Origin: a virus
Lineage: Duplodnaviria > Heunggongvirae > Uroviricota > Caudoviricetes
Strand: one strand, 5' to 3'
DNA: 30,351 bases
IMG/VR virus record: IMGVR_UViG_2663763000_000012
Part shown: in pieces, positions 2,276-30,351 of the stretch
Layout of the letters: each line of letters begins with the position of its first letter
How positions within the stretch are numbered: position 1 is the stretch's first letter
Notes under the pieces: model-generated
Seen by the model: the letters and a program-made list of their open reading frames with translations, nothing else
Databases searched by the model: none
Told to the model about the DNA's origin: nothing
Made by a program: the position numbers and the translations under genes

Positions 2276-4723
2276 TTAACCGTCATGCATCATGCTGGCA
2301 CGGGCGCGCGCACGTTTATCCCGCTCGTATTTTTCGAGCGCAGCCTGTAACTGGCGGTCAAGCTGTGTCCCCGGCGCATTACCACCCGTCAGGCTGATGT
2401 GATATTCGTTTTTACTCTGGTCCACATAAGAGCGGCCAGCCGGTGCCGTGACCGGCTGATAAGCCTGATAGCCTGCATAAGAGCTGGTCGCCGGAATATA
2501 ACCACCGCTGCCATACGTGGCGGCTTGAGTTCTGGCGGCGGTCTGGTCAAGTGTGTCTGACTCTTTGTTGATAACACCGAGTTTTTCCAGTACCCAGTCA
2601 ATACCGCTGCGCAGTTTGTTGAACGCATTAAGCGGCAGCATCAGCGCGTCAGCCAGTGCCTGCCCGAACATGACCCCCGTGTCACGGCAACTGTTCAGGG
2701 TGTCCTGAGTGGCTTTGACCGGGGCAATCAGGTTTTTAAACCACTGCCACGCGGCCTGTAACTTTTCACCCAGCCAGTCAAACACCGGCTTAAGTGGCGT
2801 GAACAGTTCCCCCACCGGCGCAAATGCCGCTTTCAGCCCTTCCACCACACCGCCAAAGAATGCGCTGACAGGCTCCCAGTATTTACGGATAAGCAACGCC
2901 CCGGCGACAATGGCGGCCACCACGGCCACAACCGGCCAGCTAATCGCTCCGATGGCGGTCATAACAGCACTGCCAACCGTCGTGAAGATTGCCCCCATTG
3001 CGCCTGCTGCCGCGATGATGGCATTGATGCCGGTGATAACCGGCCAGGCTACGAGGCCAATGGCACCGATGACACCAATCAGTGCCAGTGCACCACCGAC
3101 AATGATGCCGATGGTTGACGCCAGTGATTTGTTTTTCTGGATCCAGCCGTCGAGTTTTAACACATACTTTGTGGCCGTCTGCGTGAGCTTACGCAGCGCG
3201 CCTTCCTGCTGGTCAAACAGGTCAGTCCCCACTGCCTCATAAGCGGACTGAAACTCTTTAAAGTCACCGCCTAGGTTGTCCTGCATGATATTTACCAGCT
3301 CGGCGGTCTTCCCGTCTGAGGCTTTAAACGCAGCGGTCAGTTTGTCCAGCTTTCCGGTTGAGGCGGCAGTCATCAGCACGGCGGCGGCTGAGCTGGCCTC
3401 CTCCCCGAAAATAGTTTTCATGTATTCAGCCTGCTGGGCAGTACCGAGCCGGTTTTTCTCAAAACTGGCCTGCATTTCTTTCAGAATGGTAAATATTGGC
3501 CGGGTGTTTCCCTTGCTGTCTGAGGTTTTCACTCCAAGCTCTTTGAGTGCATCCCATGCTTTTCCCGTCGGTGCCTGCAGGCGGCTTAACACGGCACGGC
3601 TTCCCGTCCCCGCCATTGAGCCTGTGATTTTTGCATCATGCAGCGCCCCGACCATTGCGGCGGTTTCTTCAATGCTGACACCGGCATTTTTTGCCACAGG
3701 TGCGGCATAGGTCAGCGCATCGCTCATGCCGTCAAAATCGGCGGCGGTTTTGTTCATCGTCATGGAGAGAACATCCCCGATATGAGCGACCTTATCGTTT
3801 GAAAGCTGAAAGGCGGATTTCATCCCCATCAGCAGGGCGGCGTTTTCTTCCATCGTGCGGCGGTTCGCCAGCGCCATATTCAGCGTGACCGGCGTTGCCG
3901 CCTGAATGGCATCAACATCCCCACCCGCTTTCGCGATGATTATCTGTGCACCGGCCGCATCATCCGCCGAGGCGGCGGTATTGTCGCCGAGCTGGCGCGC
4001 CTGTTTGCGTAGTGCGGTCATTTCGGCGGAGTCTTTTGCCACTCCGAGCACGGCCTGCAATTCTGAGTTTTTCTGCGCAAACTCATAACCGGGCATCAGC
4101 AACTTAACTCCGGCCATCGTTCCCGCAGCAGCAATCCCCACACCGGCAGCGCCTACTGAGGCCATATTTCCGGCCAGTTCCTTTCCGGCCTGATAACGCT
4201 GTTTGACTGCGTTAAGTTTTGCCTGTTGCGCACTGACACGCGCCAGCGCGTCGCGCTGCCGGTTAAGCTGTGCGGTGGTTTCACTGATACGGTTTTTCAG
4301 TCCCTGCTCATCATGTGCAAGATTGCGGGTATTAATTCCCACAACGGCCAGTTCCCGCTGCTGGCGTTTAACGGAATCCGTCAGGCGGTTATATTTCGCC
4401 TGTAAGTCCTCCGTCGCACGCTTTGCGGATTCCAGCACTTTCACCTGAGCACGGGTCGGTCGTTCGGTATTTTTAAACTGTGTGGCAAGGGCTTCAGCTT
4501 CCTGCCGTGCCTTTTCAAGTGCATGACCAGTCACGGCAAGCTGTGCACTGGTCTTGCGAAATCCCTCAATACGGGATGCCTGACCGTTCAGCTCGCGCAG
4601 TGATTTTTGTGTTTCCCGGATATCCCCCGACAGCGACTTACTCGCTGTGCGGATGGATTTAAACGGGCGGGATGCCTGGTCAACAGCCCTGAGCAATACC
4701 TGTAATTTTACATTGTTACTCAT
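2276..4723 (-). CDS. T: Tail tape measure protein T
   Basis: 815 aa, coiled-coil-rich N-terminus, Gly/Ala-rich hydrophobic central segment, directly downstream of E/E'; size matches P2 gpT. Confidence 0.9.
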   Translation of the reverse strand: MSNNVKLQVLLRAVDQASRPFKSIRTASKSLSGDIRETQKSLRELNGQASRIEGFRKTSAQLAVTGHALEKARQEAEALATQFKNTERPTRAQVKVLESAKRATEDLQAKYNRLTDSVKRQQRELAVVGINTRNLAHDEQGLKNRISETTAQLNRQRDALARVSAQQAKLNAVKQRYQAGKELAGNMASVGAAGVGIAAAGTMAGVKLLMPGYEFAQKNSELQAVLGVAKDSAEMTALRKQARQLGDNTAASADDAAGAQIIIAKAGGDVDAIQAATPVTLNMALANRRTMEENAALLMGMKSAFQLSNDKVAHIGDVLSMTMNKTAADFDGMSDALTYAAPVAKNAGVSIEETAAMVGALHDAKITGSMAGTGSRAVLSRLQAPTGKAWDALKELGVKTSDSKGNTRPIFTILKEMQASFEKNRLGTAQQAEYMKTIFGEEASSAAAVLMTAASTGKLDKLTAAFKASDGKTAELVNIMQDNLGGDFKEFQSAYEAVGTDLFDQQEGALRKLTQTATKYVLKLDGWIQKNKSLASTIGIIVGGALALIGVIGAIGLVAWPVITGINAIIAAAGAMGAIFTTVGSAVMTAIGAISWPVVAVVAAIVAGALLIRKYWEPVSAFFGGVVEGLKAAFAPVGELFTPLKPVFDWLGEKLQAAWQWFKNLIAPVKATQDTLNSCRDTGVMFGQALADALMLPLNAFNKLRSGIDWVLEKLGVINKESDTLDQTAARTQAATYGSGGYIPATSSYAGYQAYQPVTAPAGRSYVDQSKNEYHISLTGGNAPGTQLDRQLQAALEKYERDKRARARASMMHDG

Positions 4724-22268: not shown

Positions 22269-24101
22269 TCAAACAGAGCCCTGTTCAAAAACAGTATCAA
22301 AATATGGTAGGAGAGGATAAGCACACAGAAAGAAAATCAGGATGCATGCATATGTCGTTGTTTCATCGTAACAAGCATTAGTATATAAATTACCATGTGC
22401 TAATTTATGTCTTAAGGTTGCCCCACTCTTTCTGTTAAAAAGAACATCGATAGTCAAAACAAGATTTTTAGAAAAGATACTTTCCAAATCATCTCTGCAT
22501 TTATCTAGAAGCTGAGAAATACTTGTTGACTCCTCTAATCCCTTATCCAAATATCTAGTAGCATCCTTTCCGCTAAGCTCATAATAATAACGAACCATAC
22601 CTTCCATTTGTGGTATTAAAAGATAAGCTGCACTGATGTAATCTCCCTGCCATAATTTGTAAAAGCCCAAATTAAAAATCTCCCTAAACTCCGGCTTGAC
22701 AATTGGACTAGTTGTAACCAATTTAACGAATGTTGACAACGTCAAGCCATGTTCTTGAGAAAGTACATAGCGAGCAGGTTCAAAGACACCGTTTACAAAA
22801 ATCTTATGAGTAATCTCGAAATTTCTTAGATATTGATCAATAACAACATCATCACTCATATATTTTTTATTATCCAACGGCGGGATTGTATATATCTTAC
22901 GCCCACTCTCATCATTAATTTCTGTTCCAACAAAACTAGAGAATAAACTTTTTTCTGATAATCTTAAAACTTGTTCCCTCATGCTTTCAATATTTTCAAT
23001 CGGTGTTTCACTCATTAAAACTTTGAATATATCGGGCAAAGAACGCCCCGTCAGTTTTTTTTCACTTTCAGCAACCAAGTCACTAATATCAATAGAATGG
23101 CTTAAAGTGACATATTCACTCCTTACTTCTTCTCTCAAATTAGCAAGTTGTTCCTTTAAATCTTCTATCTGTTGGCTATCACCACCGTACTGTCTTAATT
23201 CAGAGATAGCTGTTCTTAACCAAGAGATCTTACCCATATTATCAGGTCGTTCTGTTGCAACTTTAATAGTAATATTTGCAGATGCCAGTTTACATCTCTT
23301 GGCACGTTCATACTCACCATTTTTTTCATAAATAACTGCACTTGTCATATAAAGTGATTTTACAGCATCATAATATTTTTTATCTTTATGCTGCTCAGCC
23401 ATCTTCTCAGCATTTTCCGCATACTGCAGATTATACCCATCAAAATCACGCACCATAAACCAAGTCAAATTATTGAAACCTTCAAAGATTAATCTTTCAT
23501 TTTGAATACTATAAAGAGAATGAATGGCATTTTTAATCGCCATGTTTCCTTCTGATTTTCTAGGGTAGACCATTTTATTAATGTGCAAAGCCCTAGCAAT
23601 ATAATCACGAGCAAAAATAAAGCAATTTAAATCACTTTCATCCATGCTTTCGTTTTTTATTATTAGCTTTTCAATTGCTATATTTAGCATTTCAGCATAG
23701 GAATCAATTGCTTTAATTGCCACGTCTTTATTTTTCCGATTATTACACCAAACAACATCATATATTCTTGATAACAAAAATGGATTGGTTATTTTTTGAG
23801 AAACATATAAAAGACAGTCATTCACCTGCTCATCAAAATCTTCAGGCAATATTGATCTTTTATTACCCCAAATCATTTGGGGTTCAAATGATGGAGTGTT
23901 GTTAACAACTTGCAAATTGAAACTATATAGCATACCAAAAAGAGATGCTAATTTTTTCTCTTTGGGGTTTTCTGATGACTCAGCAATCCCATCCAGATAT
24001 TTTTTTATTTTATGTGCATGAAATGTAACTGGTATATGCATAAAAACACTATAATCTAGTGTTTCAAGCTCTTCCCTTGTAAGAACAAAGATATCATTCA
24101 T
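22269..24101 (-). CDS. Large AT-rich cargo protein of unknown function; candidate anti-phage defence/abortive-infection effector with a C-terminal HEPN-like R-x4-H motif
   Basis: Continuous ORF (645 codons from a TTG at 24204-24206; 610 aa from the ATG at 24099-24101, which has an AAGGTG Shine-Dalgarno 7 nt upstream). Strongly AT-rich compared with the flanking prophage. Occupies the tin/old accessory locus between cos and gene A. Motif LRHKLAHG at 22395-22412; no Walker A motif seen. Confidence 0.75.
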   Translation of the reverse strand: MNDIFVLTREELETLDYSVFMHIPVTFHAHKIKKYLDGIAESSENPKEKKLASLFGMLYSFNLQVVNNTPSFEPQMIWGNKRSILPEDFDEQVNDCLLYVSQKITNPFLLSRIYDVVWCNNRKNKDVAIKAIDSYAEMLNIAIEKLIIKNESMDESDLNCFIFARDYIARALHINKMVYPRKSEGNMAIKNAIHSLYSIQNERLIFEGFNNLTWFMVRDFDGYNLQYAENAEKMAEQHKDKKYYDAVKSLYMTSAVIYEKNGEYERAKRCKLASANITIKVATERPDNMGKISWLRTAISELRQYGGDSQQIEDLKEQLANLREEVRSEYVTLSHSIDISDLVAESEKKLTGRSLPDIFKVLMSETPIENIESMREQVLRLSEKSLFSSFVGTEINDESGRKIYTIPPLDNKKYMSDDVVIDQYLRNFEITHKIFVNGVFEPARYVLSQEHGLTLSTFVKLVTTSPIVKPEFREIFNLGFYKLWQGDYISAAYLLIPQMEGMVRYYYELSGKDATRYLDKGLEESTSISQLLDKCRDDLESIFSKNLVLTIDVLFNRKSGATLRHKLAHGNLYTNACYDETTTYACILIFFLCAYPLLPYFDTVFEQGSV

Positions 24102-24117
24102 CGTTTTCACCTTTTTC

Positions 24118-24148
24118 AGTATAAATTTGCACACATTATTATTAGCAA
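24118..24148 (-). promoter_or_regulatory. Putative sigma70-like promoter for the cargo gene
   Basis: On the minus strand, TTGCTA then a 19-nt spacer then TATACT, just upstream of the ATG at 24101. The spacer is longer than optimal, so this is weak. Confidence 0.3.
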
Positions 24149-24220
24149 CATAACTATCAATAGTTAACACATGCAGATAAACAGCAATTTTACTATTATG
24201 CAACAAATTAAATCAGATGT

Positions 24221-26503
24221 TTATTGCTCTGAATAACAATAAAACCAACTCCACTCATCAGCGACCGGATACGTAAATTTTTTCCCGTTGTAATTTACGA
24301 TCGCGCCACGCGCCAGCGCCTCAAGCTCCCATCGCTGCGGCCTGATACCGTTCTGAGCAAGGTCAACGCGGATACGGGTAATTTGCATTCTTTCCGACCG
24401 GGTCAGTCTGGCCGATGGCGCTATTTCATGCGGTTTTAACGGTCTTCCGTTTCTTTGCTGACGGTTTGGTCTTCTCAGGCCGTGTTTTAATGCGCCCCTG
24501 AGCGCCCTCACGACCTCCGGGTCATTCCATTCGATAACACCGTCATCAACCAGATTAAGCACTGCTGCGGCGTGCTCAGAAGGCGTGGGAGCCGGTAACG
24601 AAGTATCACCACCGGTGAGCTTTCCACAGTTATTGACAGGACTCCGAGGCGCGGCGATGCCGCTTTTTAAAGTCAAAGGCTCAACGACCGGAACTTTCGG
24701 AACAATGCGCCACTCCGTCGTTCTGGTGATATGAATATGGCGCGCGCCGAGATGCGGCGCGTAAATGCCGACCACTCTCTCGACTTCTTCCTCGTACTCG
24801 TTAACTTCATCCGACGGGCTACGGGCGACCCTGACAGTCTGACAATCGCGCTGGACATTTGCCCCACCCTGCGCGCTGATATACAACGCAAAATCACCAC
24901 TGTCTGCGGCGGCGCGTGCAGCCTCGACGCGCTCGTCAAACTCATCAGCAATGCTGACGCCGCGAGGCAATTTGCGTAGTTCACGGTAAGCCCCCATTGT
25001 CGGCAGGCCAACCGTTTTAAATTGCGGGATGCGCCACGTTGACGCCCATGCGGTAACAGCCGCTGCAGTGTCTTTCAGCGGCCTGCCGGTGTCGTTATCG
25101 AGCTGACCATCCAGTGCATAACCGTCGATGTTTTTTGAAATGTATTTCGCGATATATCCCGCAGCACCGCCCCGGTTAAGGTGTTTTGCCTGAAAACGGT
25201 TTCGCGCGGCTCCTCTTTCGTCGCCATCCTCTTTGAGCGCATAGCGGCGCATGATTTCGATAATCTGGTTACGCTGGCGTGGATTACAAAAAAGCATCAT
25301 ATGCCAGTGCGGCGTTCCGTCGTGGTGTGGCTCGACGACTCGCAAACCGTAGACCTGTAAATCATTATCCTTGAATGCCGTGCGCATCAGGCTCCAGATA
25401 CGGCAGAGATAACGCTGCGCATCCTTTGGATTAAATGCCTCATCGTTCCAGCCGTGATTAAGCTGGACGGTTTTATTTTCGCCTTTTCCGACCTGACGTG
25501 TCGGGTGATACTTTGACGGCGCGGTAAGCGTGATAAACATCCCCACATCACCCTCTGCGGCGGCGTAACGCTCAATACCGGCAATGGTGTTCATCAGCTC
25601 CATCCGGCGAATTTCTGGATTAGAAATACTGCCCATCACCTTACTGATAAGGTCGATGCGCTCGCCGGTTTCCCTGTTTTCAAGGTCACACGATTTAAGA
25701 AATTCCAGATTTGCCTGGCGGCGCGCACGCACATCACGAATGGCATGTTTACTGGCATAAGGAGAACGGTCTTTATTGACCTCCCCGACAGCAATCAGTA
25801 ACGCCTCATGCCAGCGCATACGCTGGCCTTTAAGCTGACTAATCCACCACTCATCGTTAAACAGACGGGCAATGGCAGAATATGCCTGCCTCGTGGTCAT
25901 CTGTCCTTTACGGTATTTTTTCCAGTAGAGCGGGGAAATATTGAAAGCACGTGCAGCGCCAGCAACATGACCATACAGGTGAGCCTGCGCCTCATCCGTA
26001 AACAGCGATTCTTTTTCACCATGCGCATCAACCCATGCATCGCAGAGTTCCTCATACATCATGAAAAGCTGCGATGAGATACGGGCGGCAAACTTTTTCA
26101 GCTCCTTGTCATTCATTCCAGGCAGGCGCGCATAGTGGCCACGCTCTGCCAAAAACAGCAACGACGCGTCGGTGTTCATTTCATGGCGCTGATTCACGCG
26201 CTCAATGCGCGGCCATAAACGACGCTGAAAAGTGGATGTGAGGAAATAAAACCCGTGCACCGGGCTTTTATTGCGCCGGATGTAGTCATAGCGTGAAGTA
26301 AACAGCGAACGCAAAAAGTAAGGCAGGCGGTTAATCGTGGATAAAACACCTTGCACCTGACGCATCTCGTCACGTGTAAGGGGTCTTTCGCGCCCGACGG
26401 CCTCGCGTGGCGCGTTCCATGCATAAGCACCGGTAAACGTCTTACCGGTGCCTGCGGCAAATGCTGACGGAGGGACAAAACGCCCGGAGGCTTTAACGGC
26501 CAT
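24221..26503 (-). CDS. A: Replication initiation protein A (rolling-circle replication endonuclease)
   Basis: ATG at 26501-26503 gives MAVKASGRFVPPSAFAAGTGK...; about 760 aa; the ORF-track start at 26545 is a TTG extension. The largest early gene, in the position of P2 gene A. Confidence 0.9.
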   Translation of the reverse strand: MAVKASGRFVPPSAFAAGTGKTFTGAYAWNAPREAVGRERPLTRDEMRQVQGVLSTINRLPYFLRSLFTSRYDYIRRNKSPVHGFYFLTSTFQRRLWPRIERVNQRHEMNTDASLLFLAERGHYARLPGMNDKELKKFAARISSQLFMMYEELCDAWVDAHGEKESLFTDEAQAHLYGHVAGAARAFNISPLYWKKYRKGQMTTRQAYSAIARLFNDEWWISQLKGQRMRWHEALLIAVGEVNKDRSPYASKHAIRDVRARRQANLEFLKSCDLENRETGERIDLISKVMGSISNPEIRRMELMNTIAGIERYAAAEGDVGMFITLTAPSKYHPTRQVGKGENKTVQLNHGWNDEAFNPKDAQRYLCRIWSLMRTAFKDNDLQVYGLRVVEPHHDGTPHWHMMLFCNPRQRNQIIEIMRRYALKEDGDERGAARNRFQAKHLNRGGAAGYIAKYISKNIDGYALDGQLDNDTGRPLKDTAAAVTAWASTWRIPQFKTVGLPTMGAYRELRKLPRGVSIADEFDERVEAARAAADSGDFALYISAQGGANVQRDCQTVRVARSPSDEVNEYEEEVERVVGIYAPHLGARHIHITRTTEWRIVPKVPVVEPLTLKSGIAAPRSPVNNCGKLTGGDTSLPAPTPSEHAAAVLNLVDDGVIEWNDPEVVRALRGALKHGLRRPNRQQRNGRPLKPHEIAPSARLTRSERMQITRIRVDLAQNGIRPQRWELEALARGAIVNYNGKKFTYPVADEWSWFYCYSEQ

Positions 26504-26768
26504 GTGAGCCAAAAGCCTCTGAACAACGCTTGCTGAGTTGCTCAACCTGCGCGTTTAAATCAGCAAAAGATTTTGCGCTTCCGGTCAGAATATCGTGATG
26601 CATCAGGCCGGAAACGAGCTGGCTTAATTTCGGGTAATAACCAACCACCGCCAGCCATTCCTGACCGGCGTTTTTACCGCTTTCAGCTCTCTTTTTCTCG
26701 TGGAGAATAAACTGAAAGCTGTCACTGGTAACGACATAACGTTCGCCAATTTCAATACGAATACTCAT
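26493..26768 (-). CDS. Small early protein, P2 orf83-like hypothetical
   Basis: 91 aa, ATG start, overlaps the A start by 11 nt; position immediately upstream of A. Confidence 0.65.
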   Translation of the reverse strand: MSIRIEIGERYVVTSDSFQFILHEKKRAESGKNAGQEWLAVVGYYPKLSQLVSGLMHHDILTGSAKSFADLNAQVEQLSKRCSEAFGSHGR

Positions 26769-26989
26769 GCCGTTCTCCGGTAATGTTTGTTTTTTGCTTC
26801 AAAGACTGACTGACAGGAAACACAACGCGTGGCTGACGGGTAAGCCGCACGACGGGCAGCAGGTATTGGCGCGTCACACTCTTCGCAAACCAGCGCAGAA
26901 GCACCGCAATGTTTTACCCTTGCCGCGTTAATCTGGCGCTCCAGTAATTCAGCCTGTTGTTCCTGAATAAAATCTACGTTGTCCGGCAT
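26765..26989 (-). CDS. TraR/DksA-family C4 zinc-finger protein
   Basis: 74 aa with C-x2-C-x17-C-x2-C (CEECDAPIPAARRAAYPSATRCVSC), typical of phage TraR/DksA-like proteins (P2 orf82 position). Confidence 0.8.
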   Translation of the reverse strand: MPDNVDFIQEQQAELLERQINAARVKHCGASALVCEECDAPIPAARRAAYPSATRCVSCQSVFEAKNKHYRRTA

Positions 26990-27279
26990 TACCAGCTCCT
27001 TTTGTCGTTCAGCTTCTTAAATTCATCAGCGCAATAGCTGGCGATTTCTGTCGTTAATTTTGTCAGTTCATCCACGGATGAAATTTGCTTATGAAATACA
27101 GCGCGTTTAACAAGTAAATTGACCACATCAGACAGGAGATTTAATTTATCCGCATAAATGGCTATAGTTGATTCCACCATATCCCCAGTGTTTTTATCGC
27201 GTTTAATGTCAGCTAGCGACAAATCACCATTTTTCATGACTGAAATCTTCAGCCAGTTATTAAACAATATATTTTTCAT
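26989..27279 (-). CDS. Hypothetical small early protein (lower GC)
   Basis: 96 aa ORF, ATG start, tightly coupled to neighbours; visibly AT-richer than neighbouring early genes. Confidence 0.6.
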   Translation of the reverse strand: MKNILFNNWLKISVMKNGDLSLADIKRDKNTGDMVESTIAIYADKLNLLSDVVNLLVKRAVFHKQISSVDELTKLTTEIASYCADEFKKLNDKRSW

Positions 27280-27521
27280 TCGCTATATGCCCTCTCCGCA
27301 GAATCAATCATTTCCCGGCCATTATCGGTAATACAGAAACCTTCTCTTGATTTGGTCACAAGCCCCCATTTCCCCATTGCTATAAATGCTTTTTCCACAC
27401 GACTAGGACAGGAGCGGAAGACATCGCTTGAAGGATGTAGTGGAGTCTTGTCATCTAATTTTTTAAGTAATGAAAGTTGATAATCTGTTAAGCGTTTCCT
27501 GAACCATTTTGTATTTGTCAT
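27276..27521 (-). CDS. Hypothetical small early protein
   Basis: ATG at 27519-27521 with GGAG immediately upstream (MTNTKWFRKRL...); the ORF-track start at 27527 is TTG. Confidence 0.6.
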   Translation of the reverse strand: MTNTKWFRKRLTDYQLSLLKKLDDKTPLHPSSDVFRSCPSRVEKAFIAMGKWGLVTKSREGFCITDNGREMIDSAERAYSE

Positions 27522-27535
27522 CTCCAACTTCCCTG

Positions 27536-27748
27536 TTATTTATTGAGTCCTAGATTATGGAATTTGGCAGACTCCTGACTGAGCAACTCGACTATCTCCA
27601 CGCGGGATAACTCCGCCTTTGTGATGTGGCGAATCATGGCATCAAGATGAGACGAAAAGCGCGTTGCTGCATCGGCCTGTGCTTCGGTTCTGGCCTGTTG
27701 CAGCATTAATGCGTATTTACCGCACTGATTTTCAGAAACTGTATGCAT
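27536..27748 (-). CDS. Hypothetical small early protein (orf80-like position)
   Basis: 70 aa ORF with ATG start downstream of B in the early operon. Confidence 0.6.
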
Positions 27749-27811
27749 GACTTTCTCCGGGCAAAAAGAAGCCCCGCACGATTAAGCGCGTTAAAAACTC
27801 TGGTTAATTAT

Positions 27812-28318
27812 TTAATGCAGATATTGCTCTGGTTTTACCGACGTCAGAATTGTCGGTGCATATTCAAACAGACTGAATAATTCACGTAATGCACGGAATA
27901 AAGCATCACGCCAGTAACATGACTCTTCATTAATTCGCCAGTATGGCTGATTAAATTCTTTTTCTGTCAGTCGTGCGTGCATAAATAAAGTACGGCGCTG
28001 ACTGACAGTTAAAAAGCTAATATATGCATACTCACTTGCACCGACCTGACGGCGTTTTGAGAATGCCCCACGCAATTCATCAATTGCACAAACCAGCCGT
28101 TCACGTTCGACGTCGTTCATTTCTTCAAAACGCATCGTTGCATGACGCTGTTTTAACTGTGCATGGAAGCAAACCGTTAGCCGTTCGCGCTCCATCATCT
28201 GATTATAATAATCACATGTCTCCTGCCAGCGAGGGACGGCAAGATGCTTACCAATTATCCGGCGCATAGTTGCTGGTTGTTTTTCAACGAGATTGAGCGT
28301 CATCACTGTCATTTCCAT
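27812..28318 (-). CDS. B: Replication protein B-like (helicase-loader candidate)
   Basis: 168 aa ORF in the position of P2 gene B (after cox/orf78, before the small ORFs and A); the size is close to the P2 B I remember. Confidence 0.7.
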   Translation of the reverse strand: MEMTVMTLNLVEKQPATMRRIIGKHLAVPRWQETCDYYNQMMERERLTVCFHAQLKQRHATMRFEEMNDVERERLVCAIDELRGAFSKRRQVGASEYAYISFLTVSQRRTLFMHARLTEKEFNQPYWRINEESCYWRDALFRALRELFSLFEYAPTILTSVKPEQYLH

Positions 28319-28566
28319 ACCCTCCGGCTTTTCAGAAAGGTCAGAGCCTTTTTTAACGGACTCTGTTTTTTGGTGCGGATAATGATTCCCTTACGCCCCT
28401 TACCGTGGGTAATGGTGAAGTCAATCGCCCTGGGGCTTTCGTTACGCAATAACTGAGCAATACAACGAGGCTCGTTCATCCTTTCCACCTTAAGCCGCAC
28501 GGCCATGTCTTGATTTGCTGTAACTAATGCGATTTTTCCAGTCATGCCATTCTGTCGGAGCTTCAT
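28309..28566 (-). CDS. Hypothetical small early protein (orf78-like position)
   Basis: ATG at 28564-28566 (the ORF-track start at 28569 is TTG); basic C-terminus; overlaps the 3' end of the cox-like gene, so the true start may be further downstream. Confidence 0.45.
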   Translation of the reverse strand: MKLRQNGMTGKIALVTANQDMAVRLKVERMNEPRCIAQLLRNESPRAIDFTITHGKGRKGIIIRTKKQSPLKKALTFLKSRRVWK

Positions 28567-28846
28567 CAACTAGTTGGGCTGCGTACTTGTCCCACTCACG
28601 GCGATTAATCCATAACTCAGCATGACCGCCCGGCTTTAATGGGTCCGTCATATAAAAGGCTGGTAACTTGCCTGCTTTCGCCATTTCAGCAACAGCACGA
28701 GGCGTCTTACCGATGTAAAGAGCAAATCCCTCTTTCGAGAGCAAATCCGACGGTGCGGCTGCAAGTTTGATGTCACATTTTTTACTTTTTGTGAGATCAG
28801 ATACTTTTTCTCCAACATCGTTATTCATTTCTGATCCAATACTCAT
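28490..28846 (-). CDS. cox: Cox-like excisionase / early-operon regulator
   Basis: Segment ...FALYIGKTPRAVAEMAKAGKLPAFYMTDPLKPGGHAELW... resembles the P2 Cox helix-turn-helix region as I recall it (IGK..AV..M..GKLP....MTDP); first gene of the early operon, divergent from C; ATG at 28844-28846 with GAGGA upstream. The N-terminus is longer than P2 Cox, so the start is uncertain. Confidence 0.65.
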   Translation of the reverse strand: MSIGSEMNNDVGEKVSDLTKSKKCDIKLAAAPSDLLSKEGFALYIGKTPRAVAEMAKAGKLPAFYMTDPLKPGGHAELWINRREWDKYAAQLVDEAPTEWHDWKNRISYSKSRHGRAA

Positions 28847-28950
28847 TTTGATATCCTCAACTTTGGTGCCATTCAACCAGAGCTATTTGAAGCCGCTCTG
28901 CGTTGTTCTGGTGTGTCGCATACAACATAAATTACGAGATACGACAATTC
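28847..28950. promoter_or_regulatory. Immunity switch region (divergent Pe/Pc promoters and operators) between cox and C
   Basis: 104-bp intergenic region between divergent cox-like and C genes; contains direct heptamer repeats ATACAAC (28919-28925) and ATACGAC (28939-28945) spaced 20 bp apart. Confidence 0.45.
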
Positions 28951-29262
28951 ATGTCAAATACACAAATCACATCTCAAGCAGAGAAACTCGCACTTATTCG
29001 GGAGTCAGAAAGAATGACAAGGAAGCAAGTTGCTGAATTAACTGGAATTAACTACAACACCTATGCTGGATATGAGCAGGGAAAAGTAAAGATGTCTTTT
29101 GACGCAGGCATGAAATTTTTCAAGCCTGAAAGATTTCGCAAGTACCGTGACTGGTTCATGTTTGATGAAACTGATCCCGCTGGCGGACAAATAGCCCCGG
29201 CGCTCGCGCACATTGGGCAAGACTCAACAACCTTGCACCACTCAGACCAAAAGACTGGCTGA
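28951..29262 (+). CDS. C: Immunity repressor C
   Basis: ATG at 28951 (the ORF-track start at 28903 is TTG); MSNTQITSQAEKLALIRESERMTRKQVAELTGINYNTYAGYEQGK... has an HTH and the C-terminal GQIAPALAH motif I recall from P2 C; about 103 aa. Confidence 0.85.
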   Translation: MSNTQITSQAEKLALIRESERMTRKQVAELTGINYNTYAGYEQGKVKMSFDAGMKFFKPERFRKYRDWFMFDETDPAGGQIAPALAHIGQDSTTLHHSDQKTG

Positions 29263-29355
29263 CGATTTATTCAGCATATGTATGCAGTAAATGTACGAAA
29301 GAAAATTGCATTAATTTTCAAGTAGTAGAAGTAAACAGCGTCATCGGAGGGCTTT

Positions 29356-30351
29356 ATGTCTATTAAAAAGCTCGATGATGGTCGTTATGAAGTGGACGTC
29401 AGACCGCAGGGTGCAGATGGAAAACGTATCAGGCGGAAATTTAAAACTAAAGGTGAAGCTCAAGCATTCGAACGTCATGTACTGGTTAACTACCACAACA
29501 AAGAGTGGCTGGAGAAGCCAGCCGACCGCCGAACTCTTACAGAGTTGTTAGGCAGATGGTGGATATATCACGGAAAATCACATGAGCGTGGAGATATTGA
29601 ACGGGGGCGTTTGACGACAATAATCGCCAAATTTGCAGAAATGGTAGTGTCCAGAGCTGACCAGCTAACAAAGAAAACGATAACTGATTATCGCGTTGTA
29701 ATGATGAACGATGGTCTAAAACCAGCCAGCGTAAATCGGCATCTGGCAATAATGAGCGGGATGTTCACCAAGTTAATTGACGCCGGTGAATACCATTCTC
29801 ACAACCCGTTCCGTGAGGTTAAGCGATTACGTGAAGCTGTTACAGAAATGGCTTTTTTGTCCAGTGAAGAGATTACACGGCTGTTATCCATGCTCGATGG
29901 TGATGAATTAAATGCGACTCTGGTCTGCCTTTCTACTGGTGGACGCTGGAGTGAAGTGTCTAATTTAAAAGCTGAACACATCATTAACCAGATGGTTACG
30001 TTTATGAAAACTAAAAACGGAAAGCGCAGGACAATTCCCGTTTCGCAGGACCTGATTAAACGGATCAAGACCAAAAATTCAGGCAGGCTTTTTAATGCCA
30101 GTTACTACAAAGTGCGCAACGCTCTCAGGGAAGTAAAACCCGATTTACCTGACGGACAGGCAGTGCATGTTTTGAGGCATACATTTGCCACACATTTTAT
30201 AATGAATGGAGGTAACATAATCACATTGCAGCGCATCCTGGGTCATTCTAACATTCAGCAAACTATGACCTACGCACACTTTGCACCGGATTTCTTACAA
30301 GATGCAGTGACTCTTAACCCGGTGTCAGGAATGTCCATAATGCGTCCATAA
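29356..30351 (+). CDS. int: Tyrosine integrase (P2 Int family)
   Basis: 331 aa, ATG preceded by GGAGG; catalytic-type motifs TGGRWSE, HVLRHTFATH and TMTYAHF (R...HxxR...Y); the stop TAA is the last codon of the window. Confidence 0.92.
   Translation: MSIKKLDDGRYEVDVRPQGADGKRIRRKFKTKGEAQAFERHVLVNYHNKEWLEKPADRRTLTELLGRWWIYHGKSHERGDIERGRLTTIIAKFAEMVVSRADQLTKKTITDYRVVMMNDGLKPASVNRHLAIMSGMFTKLIDAGEYHSHNPFREVKRLREAVTEMAFLSSEEITRLLSMLDGDELNATLVCLSTGGRWSEVSNLKAEHIINQMVTFMKTKNGKRRTIPVSQDLIKRIKTKNSGRLFNASYYKVRNALREVKPDLPDGQAVHVLRHTFATHFIMNGGNIITLQRILGHSNIQQTMTYAHFAPDFLQDAVTLNPVSGMSIMRP

Follow-up and report, generated by a model that had tools for sequence, protein, structure and literature searches.

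The window analysed here is the whole stretch of 30,351 nucleotides, a nearly complete P2-like (Peduovirus) prophage of E. coli whose early operon lies on the minus strand. Two small neighbouring reading frames in this operon are poor in G+C, and the first-pass annotation, which could not match them to a P2 protein, proposed that they may be an acquired accessory insertion. The locus raises the question of whether the two frames form one acquired cassette, and of what they may contribute to the phage. The two open reading frames were called as follows:

26989-27279, minus strand: open reading frame of 96 aa with an ATG start
27276-27527, minus strand: open reading frame of 83 aa from the TTG at 27527, or of 81 aa from the ATG at 27521

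Early operon and base composition

Both frames are present on the minus strand where the first-pass annotation had placed them. For the second, the 81-aa start is the one annotated by RefSeq, and homologues in Lelliottia also align from ATG 27521; this gene is called X81 below. The two frames were said to be AT-richer than the flanking early genes, and the base composition bears this out. The G+C content of 26989-27527 is 0.386, compared with a mean of 0.524 (sd 0.069) for segments of the same size across the window; equally low values occur in 6.4% of such segments, and all the others lie inside a low-GC gene of 645 aa at 22.1-24.5 kb. By gene, the values are 0.364 for the 96-aa frame and 0.409 for the 83-aa frame, compared with 0.44-0.53 for the flanking early genes (orf82 0.516, orf83 0.467, the orf80-like gene 0.469, B 0.438, A 0.534). 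The features of the region are:

Early operon, minus strand, in order: cox (28490-28846), orf78, B, a terminator-like hairpin, orf80, X81, orf81, orf82, orf83, A
27775..27790, minus strand: terminator-like hairpin between B and orf80, found by the transcription-signal scan and conserved with P2
27536..27748, minus strand: orf80 orthologue (DUF2732, 70 aa), with a Pfam DUF2732 match of 4.2e-09 and 91% identity to P2 Orf80
27276..27521, minus strand: X81, an ORF of 81 codons from ATG 27521 (alternative TTG 27527, 83 aa), RefSeq CDS WP_000185625.1
26989..27279, minus strand: orf81 orthologue (96 aa, DUF5405), assigned by Pfam, phrog_265, alignment to P2 and the two allele classes
26765..26989, minus strand: orf82 orthologue (TraR/DksA-type zinc finger), 100% identical to P2 Orf82, the neighbour downstream of orf81
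26493..26768, minus strand: orf83 orthologue, assigned by its DUF5405 match and the comparison with P2

The C repressor and the integrase are encoded on the plus strand. The immunity/integration module (28490-30351) is heteroimmune to P2: Cox, C and Int are 35%, 46% and 50% identical to the P2 proteins, compared with 98-100% for orf78, B and orf82. The right end of the window is 100% identical to the pflA-adjacent prophage of E. coli 2013C-4974. With a 2-kb query around both reading frames, 75 phage records match at 90-99% identity. The Yersinia-propagated phages vB_YpM_115 and vB_YpM_117 cover 100% of this query, and P2 covers 81% of it, in two segments whose total span is shorter by 233 bp.

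Directly downstream of gene A, the gpA-gpQ hotspot, which holds old/tin in P2 (Rousset et al. 2022, PMC9122126), contains in the window a 645-aa ORF (22269-24206, minus strand, GC 0.27-0.37). It matches the PADLOC candidate defence system PDC-S39 (2e-83) and Pfam DUF7380 (5e-39), and has a shorter start in the RefSeq annotation.

A resident gene and an accessory gene

The 96-aa frame matches Pfam PF17399 (DUF5405) with 94.2 bits against a gathering cut-off of 21.6 (E 6.5e-27, profile positions 2-88 of 88), and is 78.5% identical in amino acids to P2 Orf81 over residues 4-96. The C-terminal ~50 residues are near-identical to P2 Orf81, whereas the N-terminal ~45 residues are a diverged allele that is part of an alternative haplotype, and the protein has 96 aa compared with 100 aa in P2. 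The gene lies between orf80 and orf82 as in P2, and those neighbours are 91-100% identical. Its low G+C content is also that of the P2 gene (0.364 in the window, 0.373 in P2). The flanking orf83-orf82-orf81(3') DNA was found at 1,838 places in 1,603 of 5,426 complete E. coli genomes, and orf81 is carried by all of the about 1,600 E. coli genomes that have this prophage type. Because the 96-aa frame is orthologous to P2 orf81 and has the same low G+C content, it is not an acquired gene; on its sequence and position it is the resident P2 early gene orf81, which is AT-rich in P2 too, and the view that it lacks a P2 match and was acquired has to be dropped. PHROG 265, the Orf81 family, carries the label "replication initiation protein", which is a putative annotation only.

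The Pfam model DUF5405 picks up Orf83 (1.1e-13) as well as Orf81 (6.5e-27). Despite this common model, a pairwise BLASTP comparison found no similarity between them, and they were rejected as recognisable paralogues; they may be very distant paralogues on either side of the TraR-like orf82.

X81, on the other hand, is absent from P2 in a three-way DNA alignment of the window with P2 and vB_YpM_115, and here the first-pass annotation was right, both in finding no P2 match and in suspecting an accessory gene. The protein gives a full-length profile match to phrog_11056 (E 1.1e-59, positions 1-81 of 81) and is 97.5-100% identical to members of PHROG 11056 / WP_000185625.1. That family comes from Escherichia P2-like prophages and the Yersinia phages vB_YpM_115/117, and X81 is a full member without any difference. 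RefSeq annotates WP_000185625.1 as a hypothetical protein. Literature searches with DUF5405, WP_000185625, phrog_11056 and vB_YpM_115 found nothing, and those on orf80/orf81/orf83 found no functional data; the gene is thus already held in databases as a hypothetical protein, without coverage in the literature. The two frames are not one acquired cassette, and the DNA that does differ from P2 has other limits:

about 27141-27569, minus strand: haplotype-specific segment of ~429 bp, GC 0.38, defined by the three-way alignment and by linkage across 101 loci

This segment, which replaces ~196 bp of P2, covers all of X81 together with the 3' end of orf80 and the first third (5') of orf81. Identity to P2 is lost near the end of orf80 (about 27569), where the last ~10 codons of the window's Orf80 are unlike those of the 74-aa P2 protein, and is regained ~45 codons into orf81 (about 27141). 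Among the sampled IMG/VR loci only two forms exist. In the P2 form, Orf80 has 74 aa and Orf81 has 100 aa; in the X81 form, Orf80 has 70 aa and is followed by X81 and by an Orf81 of 96 aa with a different N-terminus, three features that always go together (101 loci). One IMG/VR sample holds 64 P2-form loci and, of the X81 form, 35 with intact X81, two disrupted by IS1 and three frameshifted; in the other, 64 of 80 loci have the P2 form and 16 of 80 the X81 form. The two samples of P2-like loci are not independent, since some contigs are in both. Gene content was also compared across the P2-like prophages of complete E. coli genomes, where X81 is sporadic: it was found at 56 places in 54 of the 5,426 genomes, against the 1,838 places of the flanking DNA, that is, in about 3% of E. 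coli prophages of P2-like type. It is present in two of 50,697 phage records and missing from 73 of the 75 that match the 2-kb query.

The X81 haplotype occurs with at least three immunity/integrase (C/Cox/Int) types and at two attachment sites (pflA and cpxP), and the window's own immunity type occurs also without X81. The association with several immunity types and sites indicates that the segment is shuffled among heteroimmune P2-like phages by recombination in its conserved flanks, the ~429-bp haplotype passing as one unit from prophage to prophage through homologous exchange in the adjoining orf80 and orf81 sequence.

Homologues of X81 with 45-46% full-length identity form a 74-aa branch in Lelliottia P2-like prophages, where they lie directly after orf80 and are followed by orf83 and A, without orf81 or orf82. 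A profile search of 5.8 billion proteins and a phmmer search of 1.84 billion representatives found copies only in Escherichia (E. coli, E. albertii, E. marmotae) and Lelliottia, and neither these searches nor tblastn against the 50,697 phage records and a scan of GTDB species genomes found homologues outside these two genera. This is a very small family: at 90% identity, the 5.8 billion sequences hold three intact clusters of it. Between X81 and the Lelliottia branch the frame is intact and 28 positions are invariant, spread over the predicted core and helix-turn-helix, and close X81 alleles differ by eight synonymous and five non-synonymous distinct changes. The TGA stop of X81 overlaps the ATG of orf81 (ATGA, 27276-27279), and orf80 and orf81 overlap likewise in P2. 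The X81 ATG is preceded, at a distance of 6 nt, by a purine-rich AGGGAAG; a GGAG also abuts this ATG, at an atypical spacing.

Some copies are nevertheless broken. A 1-nt insertion at nucleotide 128 is present in three sampled loci (L024; L027, from E. albertii NBRC 107761; L097) and splits the gene into fragments of 66 aa and 59 aa that are found in protein databases. In two others a copy of IS1 (InsA/InsB ORFs) lies within the first 12 codons (L023, 2816-3644; also L051). On the evidence above X81 is a real gene, and it is dispensable in prophages, as some copies carry the insertion and two are interrupted by IS1. Cys38 (window 27408, codon 38) is invariant between the window allele and the Lelliottia homologues, within an FRSCPS motif; several alleles that are intact in other respects, that of Yersinia phage vB_YpM_115 among them, have Trp in its place.

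X81 is, then, a rare accessory gene in a slot directly after orf80. We hold this account of the anatomy and identity of the two genes with high confidence.

The position after orf80 in P2-like phages

A further 80 more divergent P2-like loci were sampled by way of the Lelliottia-type orf80. In 78 of them the order is orf80-orf83-A, with no orf81, orf82 or X detected; 71 of these have nothing extra and seven have extra DNA. The remaining two loci are one with X and one that is incomplete. Among the seven, two (L140, 270-1217; L147, 2802-3749) carry a 315-aa gene with a PAPS-reductase domain (2e-17) between orf80 and orf83, and five (L119, L131, L162, L169, L170) have ~0.8 kb between orf83 and A. 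The occupants seen in the slot are hence X81, the pair of orf81 and TraR-like orf82, and the PAPS-reductase-domain gene. Optional early genes thus occasionally occupy the site that follows orf80. The P2 genes orf81 and orf82 count among these occupants and are specific to their clade, being fixed in the E. coli P2 clade and missing outside it.

Two X81-bearing IMG/VR prophages (L006 and L008) have ~0.85 kb of extra DNA (about 3841-4704) between orf83 and the start of gene A; the match there lacks the last Orf83 residues and the first ~25 residues of A, and the extra DNA may be an insertion element.

Accessory genes of P2-like phages are known from the gpA-gpQ and Z/fun loci. X81 resembles the morons of P2 (old/tin, in the gpA-gpQ hotspot) in being an optional AT-rich gene found in a minority of P2-like relatives. 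Unlike the cargo of the gpA-gpQ hotspot, it lies between orf80 and orf81, upstream of A and inside the early operon, and in E. coli its locus has two states compared with hundreds of arrangements in the hotspot (PMC9122126); by location and number of states it does not belong to that cargo. Nor did the consensus scan find a promoter and terminator of its own flanking X81, which is not a classical moron with its own signals.

Predicted fold and possible role of X81

The X81 protein has a mass of 9.4 kDa and a pI of 9.3. The Lelliottia homologues are also basic (pI 9.6-9.8), and their genes have a G+C content that is lower still (0.35-0.36). An AlphaFold2 model from a three-sequence alignment (pLDDT 77.5) has an H-H-beta-beta-H topology, with helix 13-25, a strand at 28, a short helix 33-35, helix 39-51, strands 55-58 and 61-64, and helix 66-80; this is the layout of a winged helix with one extra C-terminal helix. 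It replaced a single-sequence model, which had a pLDDT of 65.8 and no meaningful PDB matches. In a Foldseek search of the PDB, the top 20 matches of the three-sequence model are all winged-helix domains (TMq 0.56-0.76). The best of them, among which are the T4 MotA N-terminal domain, SSo2273, the CggR DNA-binding domain and the MarR family, have TM 0.67-0.77, an rmsd of about 2 A (1.7-2.4 A) and a probability of about 1.0; no E-value is below 0.001, so that the result is a fold assignment and not a family assignment. A fold search of BFVD with X81 returned small unnamed viral winged-helix proteins only. X81 probably has a winged-helix fold, and going by this model it belongs among the small phage winged-helix proteins.

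Sequence profiles point the same way below threshold. The Pfam helix-turn-helix matches all fall short of the gathering cut-offs (HTH_45, 14.3 against 25.5 bits; wHTH-PRTase_assc, 15.6 against 27), and these two, a MotA-like PHROG, S19e, SSo2273 and MotA all match on one H3-wing motif. No known family was found for X81 in NCBIfam, and Rfam gave nothing useful for either frame over the whole window. Compared with DNA-binding domains of the MarR/CggR/DtxR type, X81 shares the predicted fold (TM 0.67-0.77), a basic character and conserved polar residues at the start of the presumed recognition helix, but is without their dimerisation or ligand domain, and its Pfam matches stay below gathering. 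Three of these residues, R36, S40 and K44, do not vary within the family; they lie at the turn and where this helix would begin.

As to its expression, a scan for sigma-70 consensus promoters found no such site in 26700-28000, and no terminator was detected after X81. The only transcription signal detected near the gene is the B/orf80 hairpin, which is annotated in P2 as a "putative rho-independent terminator". Since X81 has no promoter-like site of its own, lies downstream of this hairpin and overlaps the start of orf81, it would be made only with the Pe transcript; that is, it would be transcribed from Pe with the early lytic genes, after infection or induction.

We propose that X81 would bind DNA, either sequence-specifically or as an architectural protein, through the face formed by H2, the turn and H3, and would regulate early transcription or replication in an accessory, non-essential role. 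DNA binding is suggested by the basic protein, the invariant R36/S40/K44 and the winged-helix structural matches. Some features speak against it, besides the three-sequence basis of the model, the Foldseek E-values and the sub-threshold Pfam matches given above. The charge of the wing tip, which is basic in X81 (KSRE) and acidic in the Lelliottia homologues (EVDG), is not conserved, unlike what is expected of a DNA-contacting wing; and the best structural match, the T4 MotA N-terminal domain, is a sigma-70 binder. DNA binding, a regulatory role and early expression are the most likely reading of these data, though the full proposal, of X81 as a small accessory regulator that binds DNA and is produced early in the lytic cycle, is a tentative one, with somewhat less than an even chance of being correct. 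The explanation as a whole, with orf81 as a resident gene and X81 as an accessory winged-helix regulator, we consider slightly better than even.

No candidate operator for X81 was found, which also counts against DNA binding. One arm of a 23-nt inverted repeat (27185-27207 / 27781-27803, 20 of 23 positions complementary) lies in the 5' part of orf81 that is specific to the haplotype, and the other overlaps the B/orf80 hairpin. This repeat was rejected as an operator or element end: five of 200 dinucleotide shuffles equal it and it is absent from P2 and from the Lelliottia loci, and the repeat is probably due to chance. Another candidate role, regulation of the downstream defence cargo, was rejected because four other X81-bearing prophages, one of them at a different attachment site, carry different cargo, of three further types. 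The gpA-gpQ cargoes that co-occur with X81 are DUF7380/PDC-S39, DUF3850, RT+HTH and SIR2.

The winged helix of X81 could instead be a protein-binding one, like the N-terminal domain of MotA, and dock on the host RNA polymerase, for example at sigma-70 region 4. Host transcription would then be redirected early in lytic growth, in parallel to the TraR/DksA-like Orf82. T4 MotA is a protein of ~211 aa with two domains, an N-terminal domain that binds sigma-70 and not DNA, and a C-terminal double-wing DNA-binding domain; the TraR family acts on RNA polymerase. Of the PDB structures, the MotA activation domain 1bja_A fits the X81 model best (E 0.017, TMq 0.71, rmsd 2.1 A, 23% identity), and the MotA N-terminal domain (1bja/1i1s) shares with the model the helix-wing-helix arrangement, including a C-terminal helix after the wing, and a weak sequence match on the H3-wing-H4 region. 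The sole PHROG match beyond the protein's own family is the "MotA-like activator" phrog_1345 (E 0.0035, 39 residues), a PDB profile search returns MotA three times (E 0.5-1.4), and the X homologue of Lelliottia sits where P2 has orf81 and the TraR-like orf82. All these scores, however, fall short of significance. The motif that is matched, GLVxKS..G..IT..G, is generic to winged helices and is also matched by ribosomal protein S19e and SSo2273, and the DNA-binding domains of MarR and CggR score about equally. X81, with 81 aa in one domain, also lacks the second domain of MotA, which comes from a different phage family and a different regulatory context. We consider this reading unlikely.

We give a similarly low probability to X81 being a small early anti-defence, anti-satellite or superinfection-exclusion factor that would neutralise a host or competitor system. 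The functions that the first-pass annotation named for such genes, host takeover, anti-defence and superinfection exclusion, find no direct support here. In favour, X81 is a sporadic, AT-rich, small and dispensable gene of narrow lineage that would be expressed early, and in related phages further optional genes, such as the one with the PAPS-reductase domain, are located between orf80 and orf83. Against this, X81 has no link to a particular gpA-gpQ cargo, and Pfam, NCBIfam and the PDB give no known family beyond a generic winged helix. PADLOC-DB, a library of defence and not anti-defence proteins, gave no family at E<=0.01 for X81, orf81 or orf80.

A bolder version of these ideas would make the orf80/orf83 junction a third, undescribed accessory slot holding early-lytic genes that serve the phage, with X81 as a protein like the MotA N-terminal domain that acts on the host RNA polymerase or on a regulator of defence or satellites, and not as a conventional DNA-binding repressor; this too we regard as improbable. 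Finally, that the 81-codon frame is non-functional, either open by chance in diverged sequence or the remnant of a gene in decay, is very improbable: although a number of copies in databases have a truncation, a frameshift or an IS1 insertion, the family is tiny and the GGAG is oddly spaced, the frame is kept at 45-46% identity with its 28 invariant residues, synonymous changes outnumber non-synonymous ones, the overlap with orf81 resembles that of orf80 and orf81 in P2, AGGGAAG precedes the ATG, and the predicted fold is compact and recognisable.

Returning to X81 as a probable winged-helix protein and possible early regulator, the stakes are modest, as the gene is rare and dispensable and its fold very common. 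The analysis removes a false lead, orf81 being resident P2 DNA, and narrows the curiosity to a single gene of 246 bp. If X81 binds DNA or RNA polymerase, it would offer an easily testable natural presence/absence polymorphism in a classic model phage, for which isogenic-like phages exist with X81 (vB_YpM_115/117) and without it (P2). Such binding, if true, would also draw attention to the stretch after orf80 as a small variable slot in the P2 early operon.
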